From the IMG/VR virus record IMGVR_UViG_3300037805_000894: a stretch of DNA of 64,000 nt. One strand, given 5' to 3'. A program made the translations under genes and the position numbers. Below, piece after piece: positions 53,454 to 62,926 of this stretch (its first letter is position 1; each line of letters begins with the position of its first letter). Under the pieces are notes generated by a model. It was given only the letters and a program-made list of their open reading frames with translations. It was not told the DNA's origin and did not search any database. This DNA is from a virus.

Positions 53454-54209
53454 ATGACAACATTCGATTTCGAAAACAATCAAGTTCAAAAAGAACTCAC
53501 AGGCGCTAGCTTTATAAAAAGTGAAAGTACTCTCATAGCTGCAGGCCCCCCTTTCTTGGACGATTTTGGTGCATACAATGTGGCATCTGGTTTAGCTGGC
53601 ACTTCTGATTCAGGGCTTGAAACCACAGATTATGACCCAAAGAAGTTTGGTTCTGCAAGCATAAGTGGCATACCTGTTTTTCCTATGGGTGTAATTGAGA
53701 ATGCTAATATATCCCAAACAAAATCTTTAAGACGCTTTGCCGAGATAGGAAGTAAGCGTTTTCATTTTATTACTGGGCATACAATGTCTCAAATGAGTAT
53801 TGCTCGTGTTCTTTTCCACGGCCCCTCTTTGCTGAGAGTCTTATACGCTTATATGGGATCTAAAGCTTTTGAAGGCATTGGCGGAGGCACGATTACAGAA
53901 CTCTTGAGTGGCGCAGATAAATTTGGGCAGAATGATATAGAGATTCTTTCCTCTCCAGGCTATAAAGATTTTTTTATTAACCTTGACTCTAGCCTATTCG
54001 ATATTCCATTTGGTTTAATGTTCTATATGGAAGATTCAAAGAAAACCCCTTATGGCGCTTTCTATTGCACTGAGTGTTACATTAATGCACACCAGTTTAA
54101 TATTGGCGCTTCTTCAGATGTTATTGGAGAAGCAGTAACAATCCAGTTTGACAGAGCTCTTCCAATAGGGATTGGAGACACTGGGCAAACGACAAATCCA
54201 CAAGGTTAA
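53454..54209 (+). CDS. tail tube protein
   Basis: follows the sheath; EIGS, EAVTIQFDR. Confidence 0.7.
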   Translation: MTTFDFENNQVQKELTGASFIKSESTLIAAGPPFLDDFGAYNVASGLAGTSDSGLETTDYDPKKFGSASISGIPVFPMGVIENANISQTKSLRRFAEIGSKRFHFITGHTMSQMSIARVLFHGPSLLRVLYAYMGSKAFEGIGGGTITELLSGADKFGQNDIEILSSPGYKDFFINLDSSLFDIPFGLMFYMEDSKKTPYGAFYCTECYINAHQFNIGASSDVIGEAVTIQFDRALPIGIGDTGQTTNPQG

Positions 54210-54223
54210 ATTTTACTTATAAT

Positions 54224-54733
54224 TTAAAGTCGAGCAATTTTAAGTTGTTCGACTTTATCTTTTTTCATTTTATTTATAGCTATAAGCTCTGCTTGATTAA
54301 TAGTTGCCTCCATCCTTACCTGTAACCCTGTGACAATAAAATTAGCAAAGCGGTGAGGTTGTGTATTACTGGATAAAGAAAGTACGAATATAACATGCCC
54401 AGGAAACCATTTATCCAAATAATAGCTTTTTGCATCTTTTTCTATTAAGCTTTTAGTGTATGCTTCAGTGTCTATGATAAAATCAAAAAGAGGTTCTCTA
54501 GCTGGGGTAGCTCTTTTTAATCTTATACACAAAGACATGAATTCACCATAGTCGCAATAATTACAAAAAAAGTCATCCGTTTCAATTGATGACGTGTATA
54601 TATTAGGTGTAATATTTAAGTCCGGCTCTATACCCAGATCTAGTAAGTTAAACCCCGATGGGATCTCGTTCTCGTTCATATGATGCATTAGCGCTTTGAC
54701 CAGTTTCAACCTGGAGCATAAAGTTCTGTGCAT
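54224..54733 (-). CDS. hypothetical protein (last gene of the Ubl cassette)
   Basis: overlaps ThiF 3' end; start uncertain. Confidence 0.55.
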   Translation of the reverse strand: MHRTLCSRLKLVKALMHHMNENEIPSGFNLLDLGIEPDLNITPNIYTSSIETDDFFCNYCDYGEFMSLCIRLKRATPAREPLFDFIIDTEAYTKSLIEKDAKSYYLDKWFPGHVIFVLSLSSNTQPHRFANFIVTGLQVRMEATINQAELIAINKMKKDKVEQLKIARL

Positions 54734-55361
54734 CTAGTACAACATTGAAAGGGTTCACGTTACCTACCAAGACATTTCGAACAGAGCTACAGACTAAACC
54801 AGCTGTGAGCAATATTGTATACGAAATAGCCTGTGCGGCACAAGAAGTTTTATGAGGTTTTACCTCTAAACTCTCTGCGTAAGAAGCTAAGCGGAAATCA
54901 CTTGTGACATCTACGTTGTACAGAGAGATCACATTACCGCCCATACGCGCATCAATGAGGTAACCAGCATTCACCATGAAACCGGACGTGAAGAGCTCCT
55001 TACGAGCTGCTAACGAGTCTGTAGCGAATATCACAAGACTATTCTTAGGTAAGATAGTTTGTGGAGTGGCTTTCTCTTTATTGATACTAATCTCAATCCC
55101 TTCAGGACTGAATTGCTTAGCTATGCGATAAGCCGCTTCGACTTTACTTTCACCAATATCTGTATTCATGTAGAATTGGTTAGGTATATTATGAGGCTCT
55201 ACATAGTCGTGATCAAACACTGTAATATCTGAAATGCCCATTTTTGCGAGGCCCATTAGTACGCCAGAGCCAATCCCTCCTACCCCTATAAGAACGACTG
55301 GTGTGTCCTTATAGAGAAAGGGGTTGAATAAGGCAGCTTGTCTTTTAAAGTCTCCTCTCAT
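54648..55361 (-). CDS. ThiF/E1-like activating enzyme
   Basis: IGVGGIGS, DHDYVEPHNIPNQ, KVEA, ATDS..AR, IDARMG, candidate catalytic Cys KTSCAAQ. Confidence 0.92.
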   Translation of the reverse strand: MRGDFKRQAALFNPFLYKDTPVVLIGVGGIGSGVLMGLAKMGISDITVFDHDYVEPHNIPNQFYMNTDIGESKVEAAYRIAKQFSPEGIEISINKEKATPQTILPKNSLVIFATDSLAARKELFTSGFMVNAGYLIDARMGGNVISLYNVDVTSDFRLASYAESLEVKPHKTSCAAQAISYTILLTAGLVCSSVRNVLVGNVNPFNVVLDAQNFMLQVETGQSANASYERERDPIGV

Positions 55362-56443
55362 GGTTTTACGCAGTATGTACTGCCAGCGTTAAGGTTGTAG
55401 CGATTCTTCATTAAGTTTAATATGTTTACAGCTGTGTCACTTTTCAACACCTTTGCTGGATCATGGGAGTTTACAGCAGCCGTAGAGCCGAACATCTTTA
55501 CTACACTAACAAGTTCCCAGATAATGGTAGGCTTAAGTTTTTCAAGAGTTGATACCTTAAGAAGTGCAGTAAACAAGTTCATAAGCTCTTTATGCCTATC
55601 TTTTAGTTCATTATTTTCATAATTTAGTGCGAAGATTAGAAATGCTATGTCTTTAATAGCTTTAGGTTTGCTATGCGCTGTCAGAAGTATCCGACACATA
55701 TCTTTCAATTCTGGATGAGCTTTTATTACAAGGTTGGGCAGTCCATAAGCCTTTACAGTGCCTATTGCTCCCTTAGTAGACGTGCTTCCATAATAAGAAC
55801 CTTGGCCTCCATAATAAGAAGAACCTACCCCTCCAAAATAGGGAGTCCCAGTTTTTTGATATGAAACCTTCTTTGTTTGCACTTTCTCATCAACATCTTT
55901 TTGAAGGTCCTCGAAAGACGCTTTGTAGTCTATCTTAACTACAACATTATCAATTGTCATCCTATAGGGCTTAAAGAAATCTACCCTACCTAAAATATCA
56001 TTTCCTCGATTAAGCACTAAACTCACTAAGTAATGACTATTAGCTAATCCATTAATACCACCCTCATCCGTGGAAGACCAGAAGGTTTTCATAGTATGGT
56101 GTGAGTGGCAGAAAGCCCTCATCTTAGGCATGATATCCATTAAGGCTTCTTCCTTCCCATGCTTTTCAATAAGCTCTGGCAATAAATTAGAAACCATTTC
56201 TGCATCAGCCTCGACTGATGAGGCGGTCACTTCTTGCTCCGGAACGTATATTTCCGTGATATTGAAGACATTACCTGTCTTCTCTACTGTGCCAAACCAC
56301 GCCACCTCAGCGTCTACGTTATCAACAAGGAACCGCATGCGTTGGTATACATATGCACTTAATACAATGGAGAGTTCAGCTCCTTTTCCAGAGAACCTCA
56401 TTGAGGTCTCTTTCTCCGCTTCTTTTGTTAGTTCTTTTGTCAT
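55358..56443 (-). CDS. JAB/MPN+ metalloprotease
   Basis: AEVAWFG Glu; PEQEVT; HSHHTMKTFWSSTD. Confidence 0.88.
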   Translation of the reverse strand: MTKELTKEAEKETSMRFSGKGAELSIVLSAYVYQRMRFLVDNVDAEVAWFGTVEKTGNVFNITEIYVPEQEVTASSVEADAEMVSNLLPELIEKHGKEEALMDIMPKMRAFCHSHHTMKTFWSSTDEGGINGLANSHYLVSLVLNRGNDILGRVDFFKPYRMTIDNVVVKIDYKASFEDLQKDVDEKVQTKKVSYQKTGTPYFGGVGSSYYGGQGSYYGSTSTKGAIGTVKAYGLPNLVIKAHPELKDMCRILLTAHSKPKAIKDIAFLIFALNYENNELKDRHKELMNLFTALLKVSTLEKLKPTIIWELVSVVKMFGSTAAVNSHDPAKVLKSDTAVNILNLMKNRYNLNAGSTYCVKP

Positions 56444-56454
56444 TTTGTTCCTGT

Positions 56455-56492
56455 AAAAAGAAAGAGAGAGATATATTAATATCTCTCTCTTA
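56455..56492. terminator. palindromic terminator between Ubl and JAB
   Basis: AAGAGAGAGATAT/ATATCTCTCTCTT with T tract on the minus strand. Confidence 0.6.
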
Positions 56493-56503
56493 CATTAAAT
56501 GGA

Positions 56504-56713
56504 TTATAGGCCAGCTTCTACGTTAGGAATAAGCTGAACCTGATCCCCAGGCTGCATCACATAGTCGTTATCTACACGACTATTGTTTACCTTTACGGTA
56601 ACGCTCTTACTTACATTCCGAGTGCTAATTAAAGCACCTAGAGTTAATTGCTCTTGAAAGGGGACAGTATCAGTGCCCTCTCCCATTTCAACTACGAAAA
56701 TTGGGTCAGTCAT
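56504..56713 (-). CDS. ubiquitin-like (ThiS/MoaD beta-grasp) protein
   Basis: 69 aa; VKVNN...MQPGDQVQLIPNVEAG-L. Confidence 0.85.
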   Translation of the reverse strand: MTDPIFVVEMGEGTDTVPFQEQLTLGALISTRNVSKSVTVKVNNSRVDNDYVMQPGDQVQLIPNVEAGL

Positions 56714-56717
56714 TTTT

Positions 56718-58403
56718 TTATGGGTTTTCCCCTAGAATCGGGGTGGTTACTAGTAGATCTACCAGAGTTCTAGTTTCAGGGAGAATTTCTTTTTCATCTT
56801 CAACCTCTTCTGGTTCTACTATCTTATACCCTAGATCGGCGCAAGTTTTAGCTAAGTCTATAGCTATTTTTTCCTCGCCACTTACTAGTAAGTCCTTATG
56901 TATTTTCTCCATATCAAGATTGCTTCCTCTTTCCAATAGACACTCCAAAAACGCTTTATTGGAAAGGCCTATTTTTGTATTTCCACTTATATATGCTATA
57001 AAATTCTTCTCGCTAATGTTTGTACTGAAGAGTAAAAGATTTGCAATATTTATAAAGACAGAAAAAGGGTTTATATTCTCTAGTAACATACCTACCAAAG
57101 CAGGCACAGAGTGGAAGTTGCCCCTTAAAATTTCTTTCTTAATTAAAGCTTCATACTCACCTAAACAGAGTATCCCGGTGGTTGCTACATGCGGATGCAA
57201 ATACATCTCGGAGTCAAAGCTATTTATGGTTACACTGCCTTTTTCAAGATAAGCAGCAATTACACTATCCTTATGGGAAGGCTGTGGGGACAAGCGTAAA
57301 GAGATTTGTAAGTCTTCTGCGTCGCTCGCCTGCAAGCGGACATGCAAGAGAAAATCTCCTACAAGAATACCATTATCATATGTCACCGTATTGTTAGAGT
57401 AAATATGTATATCCGGCATACTGAAAAGTAATGTAATTGACATATTTCCAGTTTTTACTGTGTTAATAAAATCAAGTAATTCTTGCTTAGGCCCATTAAA
57501 CCCACATGCTAGAGTAGGAGCAGTAATAGTGACCGGTGAATAGAGACAGTGCTTAGAAGTAGTGGGAGTATTAATAACCCCTATTTGGTTACGTCTGATT
57601 ATAATATCCTCTAAAGGATATTGTAGGGTATTAAGTCTCTCTACCTTAGCGCGAGTACTTAAGCGCTCAAGTAACCTCTCCATCAGAGAAGAGGAGTTAT
57701 CAGAAAGAAGCTTAAGCATATGAGGGAGAGTATAGTGAGTAGGCGCTGGCTGCATAGTAGAGACGTTTTCCATTATGTCTTCTATTTTAGCAGAGAAATC
57801 GCCTCCTTTCCTACACGCATCTTGAAGATGTTTCTCTAACGGTACATCTTCTAGACTCGCAATTTCGTCTTCTTCTATCTTGAAATAGAATTTATCCCCC
57901 ACTCGATGCAAGAAGTCTAGAATATTAAATGCATGTCCCTCACGCGCTCCAAACTGGAAGGAGGGCTGAAATCGAAAGGAGGCGCCGCTTGGACTTATCT
58001 TATATATAATACGAAGTAAGCTACAATTTCTTCGTATATAGTATGAGTAAGGATTTATTATTAAGTAATTATGTCCCTGTAGAGAGTTTATTGACGCTTG
58101 CTGACACCATGCTGTAAAAGCTGAATGAGAAAAATGGAAGGAGTCGCCTTCTATCAGCTCTGTTTTATTTATGTGGCTCAAATAAAAAGGTCTGTCTTTA
58201 TTCTCTAAGCTAACTGACACAGGTGTGTCAATATTCCTAGCAAGGCTTATGCGCTTAGTGGTAAGTTGTCCTGCTCTAGACATAAACTCAATACCTGCAG
58301 CTCTAGAGAGTAAGGTAGTAAGAGCATTTAAGTCTACGTTGTGCTTATCTATAAAGAGCCTGCTTTTATCGAGGAGCTCACTGGAAGGTTTTTTTCTCAT
58401 CAT
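56718..58403 (-). CDS. protein with prokaryotic E2-like domain
   Basis: GDFLLHV...LHPHVATTGILCLGEY...LLENINP. Confidence 0.7.
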   Translation of the reverse strand: MMRKKPSSELLDKSRLFIDKHNVDLNALTTLLSRAAGIEFMSRAGQLTTKRISLARNIDTPVSVSLENKDRPFYLSHINKTELIEGDSFHFSHSAFTAWCQQASINSLQGHNYLIINPYSYYIRRNCSLLRIIYKISPSGASFRFQPSFQFGAREGHAFNILDFLHRVGDKFYFKIEEDEIASLEDVPLEKHLQDACRKGGDFSAKIEDIMENVSTMQPAPTHYTLPHMLKLLSDNSSSLMERLLERLSTRAKVERLNTLQYPLEDIIIRRNQIGVINTPTTSKHCLYSPVTITAPTLACGFNGPKQELLDFINTVKTGNMSITLLFSMPDIHIYSNNTVTYDNGILVGDFLLHVRLQASDAEDLQISLRLSPQPSHKDSVIAAYLEKGSVTINSFDSEMYLHPHVATTGILCLGEYEALIKKEILRGNFHSVPALVGMLLENINPFSVFINIANLLLFSTNISEKNFIAYISGNTKIGLSNKAFLECLLERGSNLDMEKIHKDLLVSGEEKIAIDLAKTCADLGYKIVEPEEVEDEKEILPETRTLVDLLVTTPILGENP

Positions 58404-59260
58404 TTTAATTTCATTCCTAATTCTAGTTCACACTGAGTAACGTATTGACAACTATTACCACATTGCCATGTGTTAAAGTTATGGTTAAACAGTGAAGGGT
58501 CTTTTATGGCCATTGTTAAGTATTTAACAGCCCAGTCTAATTTACGAGCCATGAATTTATGCTGATCATCAGTGATGAAATCAGTAAACTGAGCTATCTC
58601 TGGGTCATCTCTTTTTTTCAAGAGACATACATCATATCGTGTTTCTCGGATTTCTTGTCCTTGCAGACTCATCATGTAAGAATAAACTACAAGTTGCCAA
58701 AGTTTCTCTGTACCACTCCAACGCCTCCATGTAGTTTTATTATCTACAATAACTTGACTGCCGTCTTTATTTTCCAGTAGGTCAATGTAACCTTTAAACT
58801 TAAGCCCAGGTGTAAACTCATGATATATTTCAATCTGGGTTCCTTCTGGTTCGACTTTAGTTAATATTTTATCTCTGAATATTTTTAAGCCTTTAGTGCA
58901 GGCAGTTAAGACCTTTCCTTGTTGCGCTTTAATGTCTTGCCCAGGAATCCAAGAGGCCTCATCCTTGCGATGTTCGAACTCTTCCTTTACATGATCTTGT
59001 AATACATCTAAAGGTTCATCTTTTCCAGTTGCTTTTTTCTGGTCATAATGGAAGTTAAGCGTTTCATCAAAAGCTGAACCTGTAATCATCTTCCAGTTGG
59101 GTGAAGACTTAATGCCTTTAATATAGCGATAGTAAAAAGCTTTGGGACACCTTTCTAATAAGCCAATAGAGGAATAAGAGAGATGCTCTATAGGAAAAGA
59201 AACGCCCTTCTCCGAAGAAAAGGGCGTCTCGTTATTAGCGGACTGATCGTTAAATTTCAT
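58400..59260 (-). CDS. PD-(D/E)xK RecB/Cas4-like exonuclease
   Basis: HLSYSS...CP..FYYRY, GYIDL, IVDNKT, QLVVYS, C-terminal Cys triad. Confidence 0.88.
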   Translation of the reverse strand: MKFNDQSANNETPFSSEKGVSFPIEHLSYSSIGLLERCPKAFYYRYIKGIKSSPNWKMITGSAFDETLNFHYDQKKATGKDEPLDVLQDHVKEEFEHRKDEASWIPGQDIKAQQGKVLTACTKGLKIFRDKILTKVEPEGTQIEIYHEFTPGLKFKGYIDLLENKDGSQVIVDNKTTWRRWSGTEKLWQLVVYSYMMSLQGQEIRETRYDVCLLKKRDDPEIAQFTDFITDDQHKFMARKLDWAVKYLTMAIKDPSLFNHNFNTWQCGNSCQYVTQCELELGMKLK

Positions 59261-59661
59261 TAGAAAGGTACATCATTCGCTGCCGTAGCCATAGGAGGCT
59301 CGTCGTTGGTCTCTAGCACCAAACTTCCCGCAGCGTGCGTTTCCACATTAGTGTAAGTTTTACCATTATTGGTATTGACTTTTTTCGTTACTTTCAGATC
59401 CAGCTTTTTGCCAATAGCATCATCTGTATCAAAGTCTCCAACGAGGCCGAGCGCATCGCCGAAGATACGGATTTTCCAGCCTGTTTTATCAGTATTCCAG
59501 AACTGGGTTACAGTACCTATTGTAGTACTAAATGTAACTTTAATTTCGTAGATACCTTCTGAGTTCATCTCACCTGTACAGGCTTTGACGCTTGCGGAGA
59601 AATCTCCTTGTGGGTGATTATTACCACCACTATTTTGTAATTCTGAGCTTGGGATTTTCAT
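59260..59661 (-). CDS. putative single-stranded DNA-binding protein
   Basis: OB-like, ends ANDVPF; replication context. Confidence 0.7.
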   Translation of the reverse strand: MKIPSSELQNSGGNNHPQGDFSASVKACTGEMNSEGIYEIKVTFSTTIGTVTQFWNTDKTGWKIRIFGDALGLVGDFDTDDAIGKKLDLKVTKKVNTNNGKTYTNVETHAAGSLVLETNDEPPMATAANDVPF

Positions 59662-59663
59662 TT

Positions 59664-60428
59664 CTAGTAAGTTTTTTTGATTGATTTTGAGATTAGACGT
59701 TGTACCCCGTCTTTAATTAATCTAAGTGTGCTCTCCCTTGCGGAAAAGGGTACGTTTTTTAATAGATGGTTAATCTTAGTTATAACCGCAGCCTGTATGT
59801 AATGCGGAATGATCGTACTATCAACACCTGTTAAGTTTAGTTTTTCAACACTGCCGCAATGTGGGCAAAAGGTTTCTGCTAGTTTATCAATTCGTTCTAC
59901 ATAGGACCTACCTTCTCTTATGTGCTTAATTTTTCTAGATAGGTCTTCCTTTGTTATACCTGTTGGTTCTCTTGTTTTAATAGCACGTATTATTACTTCT
60001 TTAGGTATGTTGATAGCATCAGAGAAAGTGTCGTAGAAAGTATCTTCTACGCTTGTTCCTACAAATAACCGCTTCCAAATATTTTCAAGGTATTTAACGG
60101 TCTTAGTCATCTCCTTAGCCCCAAAGTTAGACTCATTAACGTAGTCTCTAAAGATACGTTTCACGTCATTAAGGGCTTCTTTTTTACCTCCTATTACCAG
60201 TATCTGTAAATGAGAGTGTCCCATTTTTTTAGCGGCAGATACGATATTACTATCATCCGTAATAACATAATAACTTTCGAATGCATAAGCACGTGGGCTC
60301 AATATCATTTTATTAGTTTTAGCATAGCTAACAAGGGAGGCGATGTTAGGTCCCCTCCCCTTAATGTAGCGCGCTATATCAATGCCTATTTTAAGGCGTT
60401 CTAGTTTAAAGTCTTGATTCATATCCAT
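59664..60428 (-). CDS. hypothetical protein (degenerate ParB-like N-terminus, CPHCG)
   Basis: YYVITD...AAKKMG...I; CPHC. Confidence 0.5.
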   Translation of the reverse strand: MDMNQDFKLERLKIGIDIARYIKGRGPNIASLVSYAKTNKMILSPRAYAFESYYVITDDSNIVSAAKKMGHSHLQILVIGGKKEALNDVKRIFRDYVNESNFGAKEMTKTVKYLENIWKRLFVGTSVEDTFYDTFSDAINIPKEVIIRAIKTREPTGITKEDLSRKIKHIREGRSYVERIDKLAETFCPHCGSVEKLNLTGVDSTIIPHYIQAAVITKINHLLKNVPFSARESTLRLIKDGVQRLISKSIKKTY

Positions 60429-62364
60429 CAGTTAATTCTCGGAATTGCATTGTTTCGGGTTCGAATTCTAAGTAGGCGTCTATGTTACTAGCGCCGCGTC
60501 TGTTTTTCAATATCCTTACTACGAATTCTTTCATTCCTTCTGCAGCGCCTGGACGCCAGCTTCCTAGCACCACATCAGCGGCTTCTTCCGTCTGCCCGGA
60601 ATCCCTACCTGCACTCATATCTACAGCGGCGCTTGCATCCTCAATTGAACGGTTAACCTGATGTAAGTAGAAGATAACTATATCGTGTCTTTTAGCCATA
60701 GATTTTAAACCTTTAGCGAGCTCACTAATATGTTCATAACTAGTAGCCTTGGTTTGTGAGACTCGTCCTAAATAATCGACAAACACAACCTTGATACCAA
60801 AAGCCTCCTTAGCTTTGTAGATGTATTGCTCGATAGAGTCAATAGATGCGCTATCTTCGTCAGCAGTGATCACAGAACTGAAAGCATTACCCATTTTAGA
60901 TATAATGGTGTCTGTCATCTCCTCACGGCTAATACCTTCATTTAGGAATTGCACCATCATGCGTTCTAAGACCGCAGAAGTTGTATTGGAGGCCATTTGA
61001 AAGCCACGTTCAGCTACATCCGCATCGGACATCTCAAGTGACAGGAACAGGGTAGGTATATTTTGTTTACTCATGTTATTCATAACATGCATAGCAAAGG
61101 ATGTTTTACCGCTACCGCTCTTAGCCATATATTGAAGTACATGTCCGCCGTGTAACTTTAAGTTAGCGTCTAAAGTGGGGATACCTAAAGAAATTCCTTT
61201 TCCTTCAAAGAATCTATCTACGTAAGCACGCACAAGATCTTCTCTAGTTTTAAGGTTGCATTCTAAAGCTGATAGCTCTTCTTCGTTTTGGTTTTTGATT
61301 AACTTGCTATACAAGAAACATGTATTGCTGCAATGGGAAGCTAGAATATGATCATGACACCCATAATCCACATCATTCATCCAAGCGCTAGTTACCTTGG
61401 TTTCAATTTCTTGCATAGCCATAGGTGGATCATTTTTCTGGTTCCATGCAAGAAGCGTAGCTGTTGTAAGCTCTTGGGACATACCTTGTTTACGGAAATG
61501 GTCAGCAAGTCTAATAGCAACCTCATCTCGCTGCCCTTGCCCCACTCCATCAAGTAACCGAGCTATACACACCTTACCATTTTTAATTTGGTGGTTACTA
61601 TCTCTTAAAGCTTGCGCTGGAATAATAGCACGTGCTTTTGCTTCAGTTAATTGAGATTTCATGAAGAGATCCCTTAGCCCACTATTAGTGGTGGTTACAG
61701 CAGGTTTATGTAAATACATCCTAGCTTCGGAAGCTTTTTCATATATTTGCTCCATAGATAAAGACTTTAACTCTTGTCCAGTTAGTTGGGTCTTAAAGAA
61801 GTTAGTCTTACTATGTTGTGTATTGGGTAGCCTAAGTAAGCGTGTTTTGTCATAGATTAAATCTATACCTGCTTCTTTCTCAGAGGCGAGCCCAACTCCG
61901 CTATCTTTGGCCATTATTTGCGCTATCTGCTTAAACATAACGTTAAGCTTAGTTGAAGGCGTATAACCGAAAAGAGCATGGGGTATTAAGATATGAAATC
62001 CTTTAGCGCCTGAAAAGTAGATGTATACATCTTCATTCTTTACGTTTTTAGATTCTAGATAGTGCAAGAATTGAATCGTCTTAGTTCTGGCTTCATCAAC
62101 ATCACCGTGCGATGCATCTATATCAAGAGGAAAGAAATATGAAAAGTGCTCTCCCTTAAAACCTGAAACAGATCCGCGTTCCTCTACATGCGTTTTGAAG
62201 GTAATATCAAATTGAAATAGCCCACAATATACATCTTTACCTAACGAACTGGTTAAAGCTTGCTTATAAATATCCATATAATCGACGACGTTATTGCGAT
62301 AGACAACGCTACCACTAGCGAAGTCTGTGTATCTAAAAGTTTCAGCTAGTTCTTTGCTATTCAT
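60406..62364 (-). CDS. AEP primase-PriCT-DnaB helicase fusion
   Basis: LDID, FSGAKGFHI, RLPNT; GQRD..WNQKNDPP; AKSGSGKTS, VDYLG, HQVNR, RDSGQTEEAAD, KNRRG. Confidence 0.9.
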   Translation of the reverse strand: MNSKELAETFRYTDFASGSVVYRNNVVDYMDIYKQALTSSLGKDVYCGLFQFDITFKTHVEERGSVSGFKGEHFSYFFPLDIDASHGDVDEARTKTIQFLHYLESKNVKNEDVYIYFSGAKGFHILIPHALFGYTPSTKLNVMFKQIAQIMAKDSGVGLASEKEAGIDLIYDKTRLLRLPNTQHSKTNFFKTQLTGQELKSLSMEQIYEKASEARMYLHKPAVTTTNSGLRDLFMKSQLTEAKARAIIPAQALRDSNHQIKNGKVCIARLLDGVGQGQRDEVAIRLADHFRKQGMSQELTTATLLAWNQKNDPPMAMQEIETKVTSAWMNDVDYGCHDHILASHCSNTCFLYSKLIKNQNEEELSALECNLKTREDLVRAYVDRFFEGKGISLGIPTLDANLKLHGGHVLQYMAKSGSGKTSFAMHVMNNMSKQNIPTLFLSLEMSDADVAERGFQMASNTTSAVLERMMVQFLNEGISREEMTDTIISKMGNAFSSVITADEDSASIDSIEQYIYKAKEAFGIKVVFVDYLGRVSQTKATSYEHISELAKGLKSMAKRHDIVIFYLHQVNRSIEDASAAVDMSAGRDSGQTEEAADVVLGSWRPGAAEGMKEFVVRILKNRRGASNIDAYLEFEPETMQFRELTDGYESRL

Positions 62365-62926
62365 TTTCTTTGTATTCGGCTATGCGCATCTCGTGTTGAG
62401 ATTGTAGCAGAAGTAAAGGTACATTTTTGATAGATTTTTTATAACCATACCAAATCTGTCTCTTTTTATTTTCATACTTTGCTTTTTTAATTTTCTTTAA
62501 AGCATCCCATTCTAAACGAATCACTCTCAAGAAAGTGATTTCCTGCTTGACTTCTTTGTCCGTCCAAGTCTTAGTTATTTTAGCGGCTGGTCCATTTCTA
62601 GAAGAAAAAGCAGCTATGGCTTTATCTAAGCCAGTAATATCTAGATCATTAGCCCACGTAACGCTAGTTACTGCATGTTCGCTAGAGCCTATTGCTGTAT
62701 ATTTAGATGCATTGCTACAGAACTTAACTATAGATGGCACTAATAAACCTTGTAGTTTATCTTGTATTAATATCTCTGTAAAAAAGTTAAGTGAATCTAG
62801 TACAATCTCAACTCCATATTGTTTTTGTAGTCTTCTAACTATCCCATATAGATTTACGTCTTTTTCAATAGCATTACATTCAATTGCAAGTTCTATGAAC
62901 TTTTTTACGTCATCCGTATCTATCAT
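62357..62926 (-). CDS. hypothetical protein
   Basis: packed between the helicase and primase genes. Confidence 0.6.
   Translation of the reverse strand: MIDTDDVKKFIELAIECNAIEKDVNLYGIVRRLQKQYGVEIVLDSLNFFTEILIQDKLQGLLVPSIVKFCSNASKYTAIGSSEHAVTSVTWANDLDITGLDKAIAAFSSRNGPAAKITKTWTDKEVKQEITFLRVIRLEWDALKKIKKAKYENKKRQIWYGYKKSIKNVPLLLLQSQHEMRIAEYKENE

Follow-up and report, generated by a model that had tools for sequence, protein, structure and literature searches.

Organization of the locus

The subject of this analysis is a cassette of five genes in a 64,000-nucleotide stretch of viral DNA (hereafter the window), which corresponds, read on the reverse strand, to bases 60457-124456 of one IMG/VR virus record (IMGVR_UViG_3300037805_000894; 156,428 bp, rated 93% complete). 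The source genome is that of an uncultured marine phage, a tailed one judging by its large terminase, head protease and major head protein genes. The cassette occupies positions 54224-58403 on the minus strand, its genes having start and stop codons that overlap or nearly touch, and encodes a protein resembling ubiquitin-conjugating enzymes (E2), a ubiquitin-like protein (Ubl), a JAB/JAMM peptidase, a ThiF-type relative of ubiquitin-activating enzymes (E1) and a small protein, ORF5. An earlier interpretation of the DNA made without database searches (the sequence-only reading) had proposed a complete Ubl conjugation cassette here, and the four genes that it named (E2-like, Ubl, JAB and E1) are indeed present, all on the minus strand. 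All four components carry intact catalytic signatures, and the cassette is probably a real phage-encoded E1-E2 Ubl conjugation pathway transcribed together with replication genes. Its features are the following:

56718..58403, minus strand: E2-like protein, 561 aa, with a variable N-terminal half, a UBC-like C-terminal domain (predicted) and an acidic tail
57012..57704, minus strand: predicted UBC-like domain, about residues 234-464, whose model aligns to UBE2E1, UBE2S, UbcH7, UbcH5 and Ubc9
57159..57197, minus strand: putative E2 active-site motif HPHVATTGILCLG, with H403 P404 H405 ... C413 ... G415, proposed from invariance and spacing
56745..56765, minus strand: C-terminal motif LVDLLVT after an acidic linker, of the form (L/Q)(V/I)(D/N)LL(V/I)(N/T) in 5 of 7 homologues
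56504..56713, minus strand: Ubl, 69 aa, a beta-grasp protein of ThiS/MoaD/SAMP type ending in VEAG-L
56452..56491, minus strand: terminator-like 13-bp hairpin with a U tract, between the Ubl and JAB genes (dG -19.8 kcal/mol, z -4.2)
55358..56443, minus strand: JAB/JAMM peptidase, 361 aa, with its domain at about residues 15-182, a Gly/Ser/Tyr-rich linker and a helical C-terminal domain (230-361)
56066..56107, minus strand: JAMM zinc-site motif HSHHTMKTFWSSTD, that is H-x-H-x7-S-x2-D, invariant in 11 homologues
54648..55361, minus strand: minimal E1, 237 aa, a ThiF/MoeB-type adenylation domain (PF00899, E 2.2e-22, residues 19-207)
54840..54842, minus strand: codon of Cys174, the putative catalytic cysteine of the E1 crossover loop, invariant in phage and bacterial orthologues
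54224..54733, minus strand, probable start 54688 or 54679: ORF5, about 150 aa, with no recognisable fold and with C57, C60, C69 and H113 invariant

The E2-like protein

The E2-like protein has no match in Pfam, NCBIfam, PHROG or PADLOC, and word-based homologue searches, with the single sequence or with a profile, find only the protein itself; an exhaustive HMMER search of 1.8 billion representatives yields six distant homologues. Among the phage-type homologues H403, P404, H405, V406, G410, C413, G415 and P434 are invariant, and the motif HPH-x7-C-x-G is kept in all eight phage-type and both bacterial proteins, always with His and not Asn as its third residue. The sequence-only reading had written this motif as HPHV..G.LCLG, which is correct in substance, apart from the gap between V and G that spans three residues and not two, so that its proper form is HPH-V-x3-G-x2-C-L-G. 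The third motif residue and the Cys are 8 positions apart, the same spacing as in the canonical E2 active site, HPN-x7-C-L.

The AlphaFold2 (AF2) model of the protein (m87dd7a547ab8) was built from a shallow alignment of 7 sequences and reaches a predicted local distance difference test (pLDDT) score of 70-88 for residues 320-530, the N-terminal half being poorly modelled. Structure prediction for 56718..58403 gives the C-terminal half the UBC-like fold that an E2 would have: when the low-confidence parts are trimmed and the rest is compared exhaustively with VIA, UBC E2 enzymes fill ranks 1-10 of 48,161 comparisons (Z 7.0-7.5, root-mean-square deviation 3.1-4.3 A, 117-134 residues aligned, with most of each E2 covered). 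The top E2s include UBE2E1, UBE2S, UbcH7, UbcH5c/b, Pex4, Ubc9, UbcH10 and Cdc34, and the UEV, RWD and Cap2 folds rank below them. Residues 238-452 of the model align with 0-123 of UbcH5b, and residues 238-464 with 6-147 of UBE2S; the catalytic Cys of these enzymes is taken here to be at position 85 and at position 95, respectively. Since the end-points of the aligned ranges agree, the predicted position of C413 fits that of the catalytic Cys of E2s, a fit judged from these end-points and not from a residue-level alignment. A UBC fold for the C-terminal domain is therefore considered probable on the basis of the model, and a catalytic role of C413 likely.

Other searches with the protein are less informative. 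Foldseek with the full-length model against the PDB returns only noise, with TRPML channels on top, and the profile finds nothing useful among PDB sequences. BilB and BubB do not appear among the 50 structural matches listed for the model, which excludes neither. UQ_con and Prok-E2_A-E give no match at E <= 0.1-1 for the window protein or for the L001, L009, P0007 and P0008 proteins, and a six-frame search of the phage genome with UQ_con is also negative. Two weak leads come from the Atlas, where a structural neighbour is a bacterial cluster named 'E2 variant' that has UQ_con in 29% of its members, and where a feature neighbour is a cluster with Prok-E2_D in 15% of its members. In BFVD the E2 of CroV ranks third, after unnamed marine-virus proteins. 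The best BFVD matches (A0A516LAI7, A0A516LW79, A0A516ML27 and A0A7M1RZ27, at E 1.7e-4 and weaker) belong to uncultured marine viruses and to a crAss-like phage and are UniProt entries without a protein name; because these structure matches come from such viruses, the predicted E2-like fold may be commoner in phages than sequence searches reveal.

Conservation along the protein is uneven, with identity among the homologues of 14-22% in the first 320 residues, 26-35% in residues 321-530 and 42-52% in the C-terminal tail. The N-terminal region, which had been put at ~330 aa, measures about 230 aa by structural alignment, while the confidently modelled part begins near residue 320. In the same phages the Ubl and the E1 are 64-74% identical and the E2-like protein just 26%, as is expected if the E2 holds the target specificity; judging from these sequences, the fast-evolving N-terminal half probably selects the targets. 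At the other end of the protein, the short C-terminal motif is its best-conserved part among the phage homologues and has the look of a docking peptide; motifs of the LVDLLVT type occur in no other protein of the phage proteome. A reading of LVDLLV as a clamp-binding motif gains no support and is a bare idea, as no clamp gene is found in the phage and the motif is in no other phage protein.

The putative Ubl precursor and the JAB peptidase

The beta-grasp protein ending in VEAG-L is borne out as a Ubl of the ThiS/MoaD/SAMP type. It matches Pfam ThiS just under the cut-off (E 6.5e-4) and also touches the TGS and MoaD models, and a profile of phage and bacterial Ubls finds, among PDB sequences, SAMP2 of P. 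furiosus over its full length (E 1.1e-5) and MoaD proteins too. The alignment to SAMP2 and MoaD stops exactly at Gly68 of the phage protein, which corresponds to their terminal Gly. The phage orthologues, 68-74% identical, end in VEAG-L or VEAG-V, whereas the bacterial ones end in KIRGG-AR or in KIRGG followed by more than 50 residues. A conserved Gly behind which the residues vary (L, V, AR or more than 50 aa) is typical of a pro-Ubl that undergoes processing, as in the case of BilA and BilC (PMC10557695). In Type II Bil, BilC cuts the Ubl at Gly97-Ala98, after the conserved Gly, and the BilA of E. aridi has exactly one residue beyond the reactive Gly (PMC10557695). By analogy with this precedent, and in keeping with the AG-L/AG-V and the bacterial GG-AR or extended ends, the proposal that the JAB enzyme cuts off the single terminal residue gains support.

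The JAB peptidase combines a JAMM fold with the full catalytic motif, and thus both the fold and the E...H-x-H-x7-S-x2-D signature of the JAMM/MPN+ family are found, in agreement with what had been read from the sequence. In the window protein no Pfam match is obtained at the standard cut-off; Prok-JAB matches weakly, below cut-off, in 8 of 11 homologues. E46, H113, S114, H115, S123 and D126 are invariant in these 11 homologues, which come from marine metagenomes. In the AF2 model the domain has pLDDT of about 70-88, and Foldseek relates it to Rpn11, CSN5, BRCC36 and archaeal JAMM1 (E 1e-7 to 1e-5, with 1e-7 for Rpn11), while the VIA Z scores are 13.6 for Rpn11, 11.0 for Cap3, 10.6 for BubCD and 10.2 for BilC (8tyy). 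The motif aligns with that of a Rpn11 homologue from Caldiarchaeum, although the profile reaches just E 0.15 against PDB sequences. The helical C-terminal domain of 130 aa has no informative match and is lacking in the bacterial orthologue. The Gly/Ser/Tyr-rich linker (residues ~190-227, window 55760-55870, minus strand) is of low complexity and of variable length among orthologues; it joins the JAMM domain to the phage-specific helical domain and is reminiscent of the Gly-rich linker in the tail-assembly Ubl proteins of lambda (TAPI).

The similarity of the Ubl to SAMP2, whose matched structure is a complex with a JAMM enzyme (5lda), would also fit an E2-independent tagging of the archaeal kind, in which the E1 alone would conjugate the Ubl, as UbaA does with the SAMPs, the JAMM protein would be an eraser of the desampylase type, and the 561-aa protein would serve as an adaptor of the UEV/RWD type without catalytic activity, or else as the main substrate. 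A weak match of the bacterial JAB to 'desampylase', the minimal, UbaA-like type of the E1 and the presence of UEV and RWD folds among the structural matches of the E2-like model are all in its favour. However, even very distant homologues, with 26% identity or less, share the Cys and the HPH of the 561-aa protein without exception, which favours catalysis over a pseudo-enzyme, and the corresponding gene is kept beside those for E1, JAB and Ubl in both phages and bacteria, so that tagging by the E1 alone is considered quite improbable.

The minimal E1 and ORF5

The ThiF/E1 assignment is supported by PF00899, whose match, at the E value given above, exceeds the Pfam cut-off, and by the profile, which finds MoeB (E 2e-12) as well as Uba7, Uba6, MccB, TcdA, Uba5, UBA3 and ThiF; one motif residue departs from the E1 pattern, namely the Arg of SNLxRQ (see below). 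The enzyme is a single domain, devoid of a rhodanese domain, of a zinc Cys4 site and of a second adenylation domain; no second ThiF is present in the 93%-complete genome. R7, the GxGGIGS Gly loop, D50, K73, D115, R139 and C174 are invariant in phage and bacterial orthologues.

Orthologues of ORF5, 56-57% identical, follow the E1 gene directly in L001, L002 and L003, and no such gene is present in the bacterial operon described below. The protein has no match in Pfam, NCBIfam, PHROG or PADLOC, and its Atlas record, which begins at M19, is uninformative.

An E1 whose best match is MoeB and a Ubl that best matches ThiS, MoaD and SAMP2 would also suit a sulfur carrier system, and gene sets that combine a ThiS-like protein, a JAB and an E1 are established as sulfur-transfer systems (Iyer et al. 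2006, PMC1779556). In such a system the E1 would adenylate the ThiS/MoaD-like protein, host sulfur donors would convert it to a thiocarboxylate, and DNA, tRNA or a small molecule would be thio-modified during replication, consistent with the location of the cassette among DNA-metabolism genes; the JAB enzyme would merely mature the carrier, and the Cys of the 561-aa protein would relay a persulfide or use the thiocarboxylate. Against this, neither rhodanese (PF00581) nor cysteine desulfurase (PF00266) is found across the 156-kb genome, as the sequence-only reading had held in noting no sulfur-transfer genes, albeit host enzymes could still serve. Moreover, no partner of the MoaE/ThiG type is present among the cassette or neighbouring proteins, and a rhodanese domain is absent from the E1 as well; what is conserved as partner is a protein with a predicted UBC fold and HPH...C, foreign to sulfur pathways, and the phage Ubl ends in AG-x and not in GG. 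The probability assigned to a sulfur carrier is accordingly very low.

Expression of the cassette

A terminator-like hairpin after the Ubl gene had been noticed in the sequence-only reading, which suggested that it would give an excess of Ubl. The hairpin exists, and at the corresponding position L001 and L003 carry similarly shaped hairpins, again followed by a U tract but with other stem sequences, so that position and shape are kept in two other lineages. As only 18 nt separate it from the JAB start, the JAB, E1 and ORF5 genes must be transcribed through it. The conserved hairpin and U tract thus lend support to the proposed excess: E2 and Ubl transcripts would probably outnumber those of JAB, E1 and ORF5.

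An internal sigma28-like promoter (CTAAA-N16-GGTATAA at 56824-56851, minus strand, within the E2-like gene near its 3' end and 105 nt before the Ubl gene) was also considered and is not supported, because the -10-like GGTATAA simply encodes a conserved Gly-Tyr-Lys, L001 lacks the -35-like half and the heptamer is no commoner than expected by chance.

Genomic setting

From 63.9 to 54.2 kb the minus strand carries a single, tightly packed row of genes that ends in the cassette. The genes and signals around the latter are the following:

First gene of the row, minus strand: helicase fragment, from family searches
62357-62926, minus strand: conserved 189-aa protein with no Pfam, NCBIfam or PHROG match
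60406-62364, minus strand: primase/DnaB-type helicase
59664-60428, minus strand: conserved 254-aa protein with no Pfam, NCBIfam or PHROG match
59260-59661, minus strand: protein resembling single-stranded DNA-binding proteins (SSB-like)
58400-59260, minus strand: PD-(D/E)XK nuclease
54225-54257, no strand assigned: 15-bp hairpin, a probable bidirectional terminator where the cassette converges with the plus-strand gene 53454-54209

The PD-(D/E)XK nuclease gene lies directly upstream of the E2-like gene, and its stop codon overlaps the start of the latter. Because of these gene overlaps and of the nuclease, SSB-like and primase-helicase genes that precede the E2-like gene, the cassette is placed in the replication operon, as had been claimed. 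The G+C content is even, at 0.37-0.43, and the cassette is no compositional outlier. As for the 254-aa protein, a counterpart of 255 aa stands at the same position in the Tara contigs described below.

Conservation in marine phages and in Methylomirabilota

Among GenBank phages, megablast of 24 kb gives no match at the DNA level and tblastn of the E2-like, E1 and JAB proteins gives none, and IMG/VR scans based on the JAB alignment, on P0003 and P0005 or on the adjacent nuclease find no relatives. The metagenome scan with the JAB alignment, in turn, yields four loci. Two 10-kb phage contigs from Tara Oceans have the full five-gene order and a third one has Ubl, JAB, E1 and ORF5; the Tara order is primase-helicase, 255-aa protein, 134-aa protein, nuclease, 575-aa E2-like protein, 71-aa Ubl, 343-aa JAB, 239-aa E1 and 146-aa ORF5. 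Identity to the window proteins is 68-74% for the Ubl, 64-69% for the E1, 56-57% for ORF5, 45-50% for the JAB and 26% for the E2-like protein. The cassette is far beyond chance, since its order recurs in two Tara loci at 26-74% identity and that of its last four genes in a third.

Cellular relatives emerge from a narrow, pattern-based search with the patterns of the E1 subtype against 185,579 species genomes, which finds five loci, all of them in metagenome-assembled genomes (MAGs) of Methylomirabilota. In L009:1552-4188 and L006:6267-9050 there is a chromosomal four-gene operon of high G+C with the order E2-JAB-E1-Ubl. It shares with the phage cassette the E2-like family (HPHV..G.PCLG), the E1 subtype (EPHNIPNQ, DARMGG and the conserved Cys), a JAB (Prok-JAB, E 1.9e-4) and a ThiS-like Ubl, which here scores above the Pfam cut-off for the ThiS family. 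In contrast, its E2-like protein, of 373 aa and with no curated family match, has a coiled-coil-like N-terminus of ~250 aa and ends in ...HPHVSDGRPCLGN... plus two helices, its Ubl ends in RGG plus a tail, ORF5 is missing and the JAB is without the helical C-terminal domain. The KIRGG end of these Ubls resembles the LRGG of ubiquitin, with AR behind it in one MAG and an extension of more than 50 residues in another. In a profile comparison, 96 columns of the E2-like cores from phage and bacteria align at E 0.0024, and a local alignment displays their common core; hhalign assigns a low probability, since its template consists of one sequence. The bacterial operons sit between a histidine kinase gene, a lipoprotein-like gene and an isocitrate lyase gene, with no prophage and no evident defence island there.

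A rival reading concerns only the role of the cassette and leaves its mechanism unchanged. A Bil-like phage weapon would employ the same E1-E2 chemistry against the structural proteins of rival phages, whose tagging would result in superinfection exclusion, or against defence proteins of the host, which it would disable. Bacterial Bil does tag a phage tail protein (10.1101/2023.09.04.556158), and the N-terminus of the E2-like protein evolves far faster than the remaining cassette, which is typical of conflict interfaces and suggests one here. On the other hand, translational coupling ties the cassette to core replication genes, and it keeps a fixed position in related phages, unlike typical accessory 'moron' genes, and the bacterial relatives stand among housekeeping genes and not in defence islands. 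The fixed position inside the replication operon suggests a core function, and a role in conflict is rated as rather unlikely. The cassette may serve replication or assembly of the phage itself, takeover of the host or conflict with other phages; the roles put forward in the sequence-only reading (tags on host or phage proteins, a counter to host Ubl defence, and target selection by the N-terminal region and ORF5) are hypothetical.

Comparison with known systems

The bacterial Bil systems (BilABCD, Types I and II, corresponding to classes 6d/6c of Iyer et al. 2006) resemble the cassette in having separate genes for Ubl, E2, JAB and E1 and no E3, in a Ubl whose residues past the reactive Gly are trimmed by the JAB, and in an E2 that is thought to choose the targets (PMC10557695, 10.1101/2023.09.04.556158). 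Like Bil, the cassette has a JAB and a Ubl in which the conserved Gly is followed by few residues. However, Bil has the order Ubl-E2-DUB-E1 and is located in a host defence island, whereas the cassette is phage-encoded with the order E2-Ubl-JAB-E1-X; the Bil E1 is by definition IAD-AAD-CYS (PMC11601596) and that of the cassette is one 237-aa ThiF domain; BilB has a His after the Cys (CEHH in Type II), while the cassette E2 has HPH before the Cys, no invariant His after it, and a long N-terminal extension unlike BilB. The likening to Bil made in the sequence-only reading therefore stands for the gene set, the conserved Gly and the proposed JAB trimming, and fails for membership on account of the E1 architecture and the E2 family. 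In PADLOC only the cassette E1 matches any model, and all of these are CBASS E1-E2 models.

Among the structural matches of the E2-like model, eukaryotic UBC E2s (UBE2D, UBE2E1, UBE2S and others) rank first, and they share with it the HPx-x7-C-L spacing and a Gly three residues before the Cys. They differ in the third motif residue, which is Asn in place of the His of the cassette E2, and in the absence of any sequence-family match between the two; in addition, the cassette E2 has inter-strand inserts, ~230 extra N-terminal residues, ~100 extra helical C-terminal residues and the acidic tail. Archaeal sampylation (SAMP1/2, UbaA and the JAMM desampylase) has in common with the cassette the SAMP2-like Ubl, the minimal single-domain E1 and the JAMM partner; in contrast, it has no E2, its SAMPs end in a free GG and it is cellular rather than viral.

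The Bub and CBASS systems (PMC11601596, PMC10097602) follow the same E1/E2/JAB logic, and the JAB model aligns with BubCD and Cap3. Bub (6E) works through Ser/Tyr oxyesters, fused proteins and a DUF6527 protease; in the cassette the genes are separate, both Cys are invariant and no protein matches DUF6527, so that it is not assigned to Bub. Type II CBASS has the Cap2 E2-E1 fusion and a CD-NTase as substrate, whereas the cassette E2 and E1 are separate, no CD-NTase gene adjoins the cassette and the cassette E1 matches Cap2-type models in the Rossmann part only, far below cut-offs; CBASS is likewise not the class to which it belongs. In Iyer et al. 2006 (PMC1779556) the phage Ubl-JAB pairs are confined to tail assembly (TAPI/TAPK) and have neither E1 nor E2, and the literature searched contains no description of a phage with a full E1-E2-Ubl-JAB set.

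Proposed pathway and weight of the evidence

On the basis of the anatomy of the cassette and of established E1, E2 and JAMM chemistry, the following pathway is proposed. The 69-aa Ubl would be made as a pro-form with an Ala-Gly-Leu end, from which the JAMM peptidase would take off Leu69 and expose Gly68. The minimal and probably homodimeric ThiF-type E1 would adenylate Gly68 and then hold the Ubl as a thioester on Cys174, from which it would be handed to Cys413 in the UBC-like domain of the E2-like protein. The latter would transfer the Ubl to lysines of targets that are picked by its own N-terminal half, possibly with the help of ORF5, and would thus be an E2/E3 hybrid, as proposed for BilB; the JAB enzyme may also undo the tags.

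Several observations speak against a conjugation pathway. The E2 call rests on an AF2 model from a shallow alignment, in which the first helix and strands stay under a pLDDT of 60; its Z of 7.5, being below 8, is within the range in which VIA warns of common arrangements; and no sequence model of an E2 family (UQ_con, Prok-E2_A-E, PADLOC) matches. In the ATP-binding motif SNLxRQ, the Arg that nearly all E1s possess is replaced by Asn61 in the cassette enzyme (EPHNIPNQ), a replacement that is subtype-wide and because of which its adenylation chemistry may differ from the usual one. The Ubl is closest to ThiS, MoaD and SAMP proteins, which double as sulfur carriers, and sets of JAB, E1 and ThiS-like proteins that work without conjugation exist, as CysO/Mec and QbsE/QbsD. 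The evidence, finally, is wholly in silico.

Significance

Ubl tagging machinery has so far been studied in cells only and, in bacteria, as anti-phage defence. Since 2023 the prokaryotic Ubl conjugation systems (CBASS Cap2, Bil and Bub) have been read as host immunity against phages, and a cascade owned by a phage would reverse this picture. The cassette E2 is an orphan at the sequence level that keeps the HPx-x7-C layout lost by the characterized bacterial E2s (BilB and BubB), and it has relatives in Methylomirabilota, whose partner is a Ubl with a ubiquitin-like RGG end. The parts of the cassette are small and separable.

Taken tentatively, and with somewhat less assurance than the existence of the pathway itself, a lineage of tailed marine phages may run its own Ubl cascade as part of its replication programme, with an E2 of a previously unmodelled HPx...C family that bears a fast-evolving targeting domain and tags host or viral proteins. 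It would be the first Ubl conjugation system of a virus of prokaryotes, with cellular relatives in Methylomirabilota. Such a cascade raises the questions of what a virus would gain from tagging proteins and of whether the targets would be its own replisome or virion, the defences of the host or rival phages.

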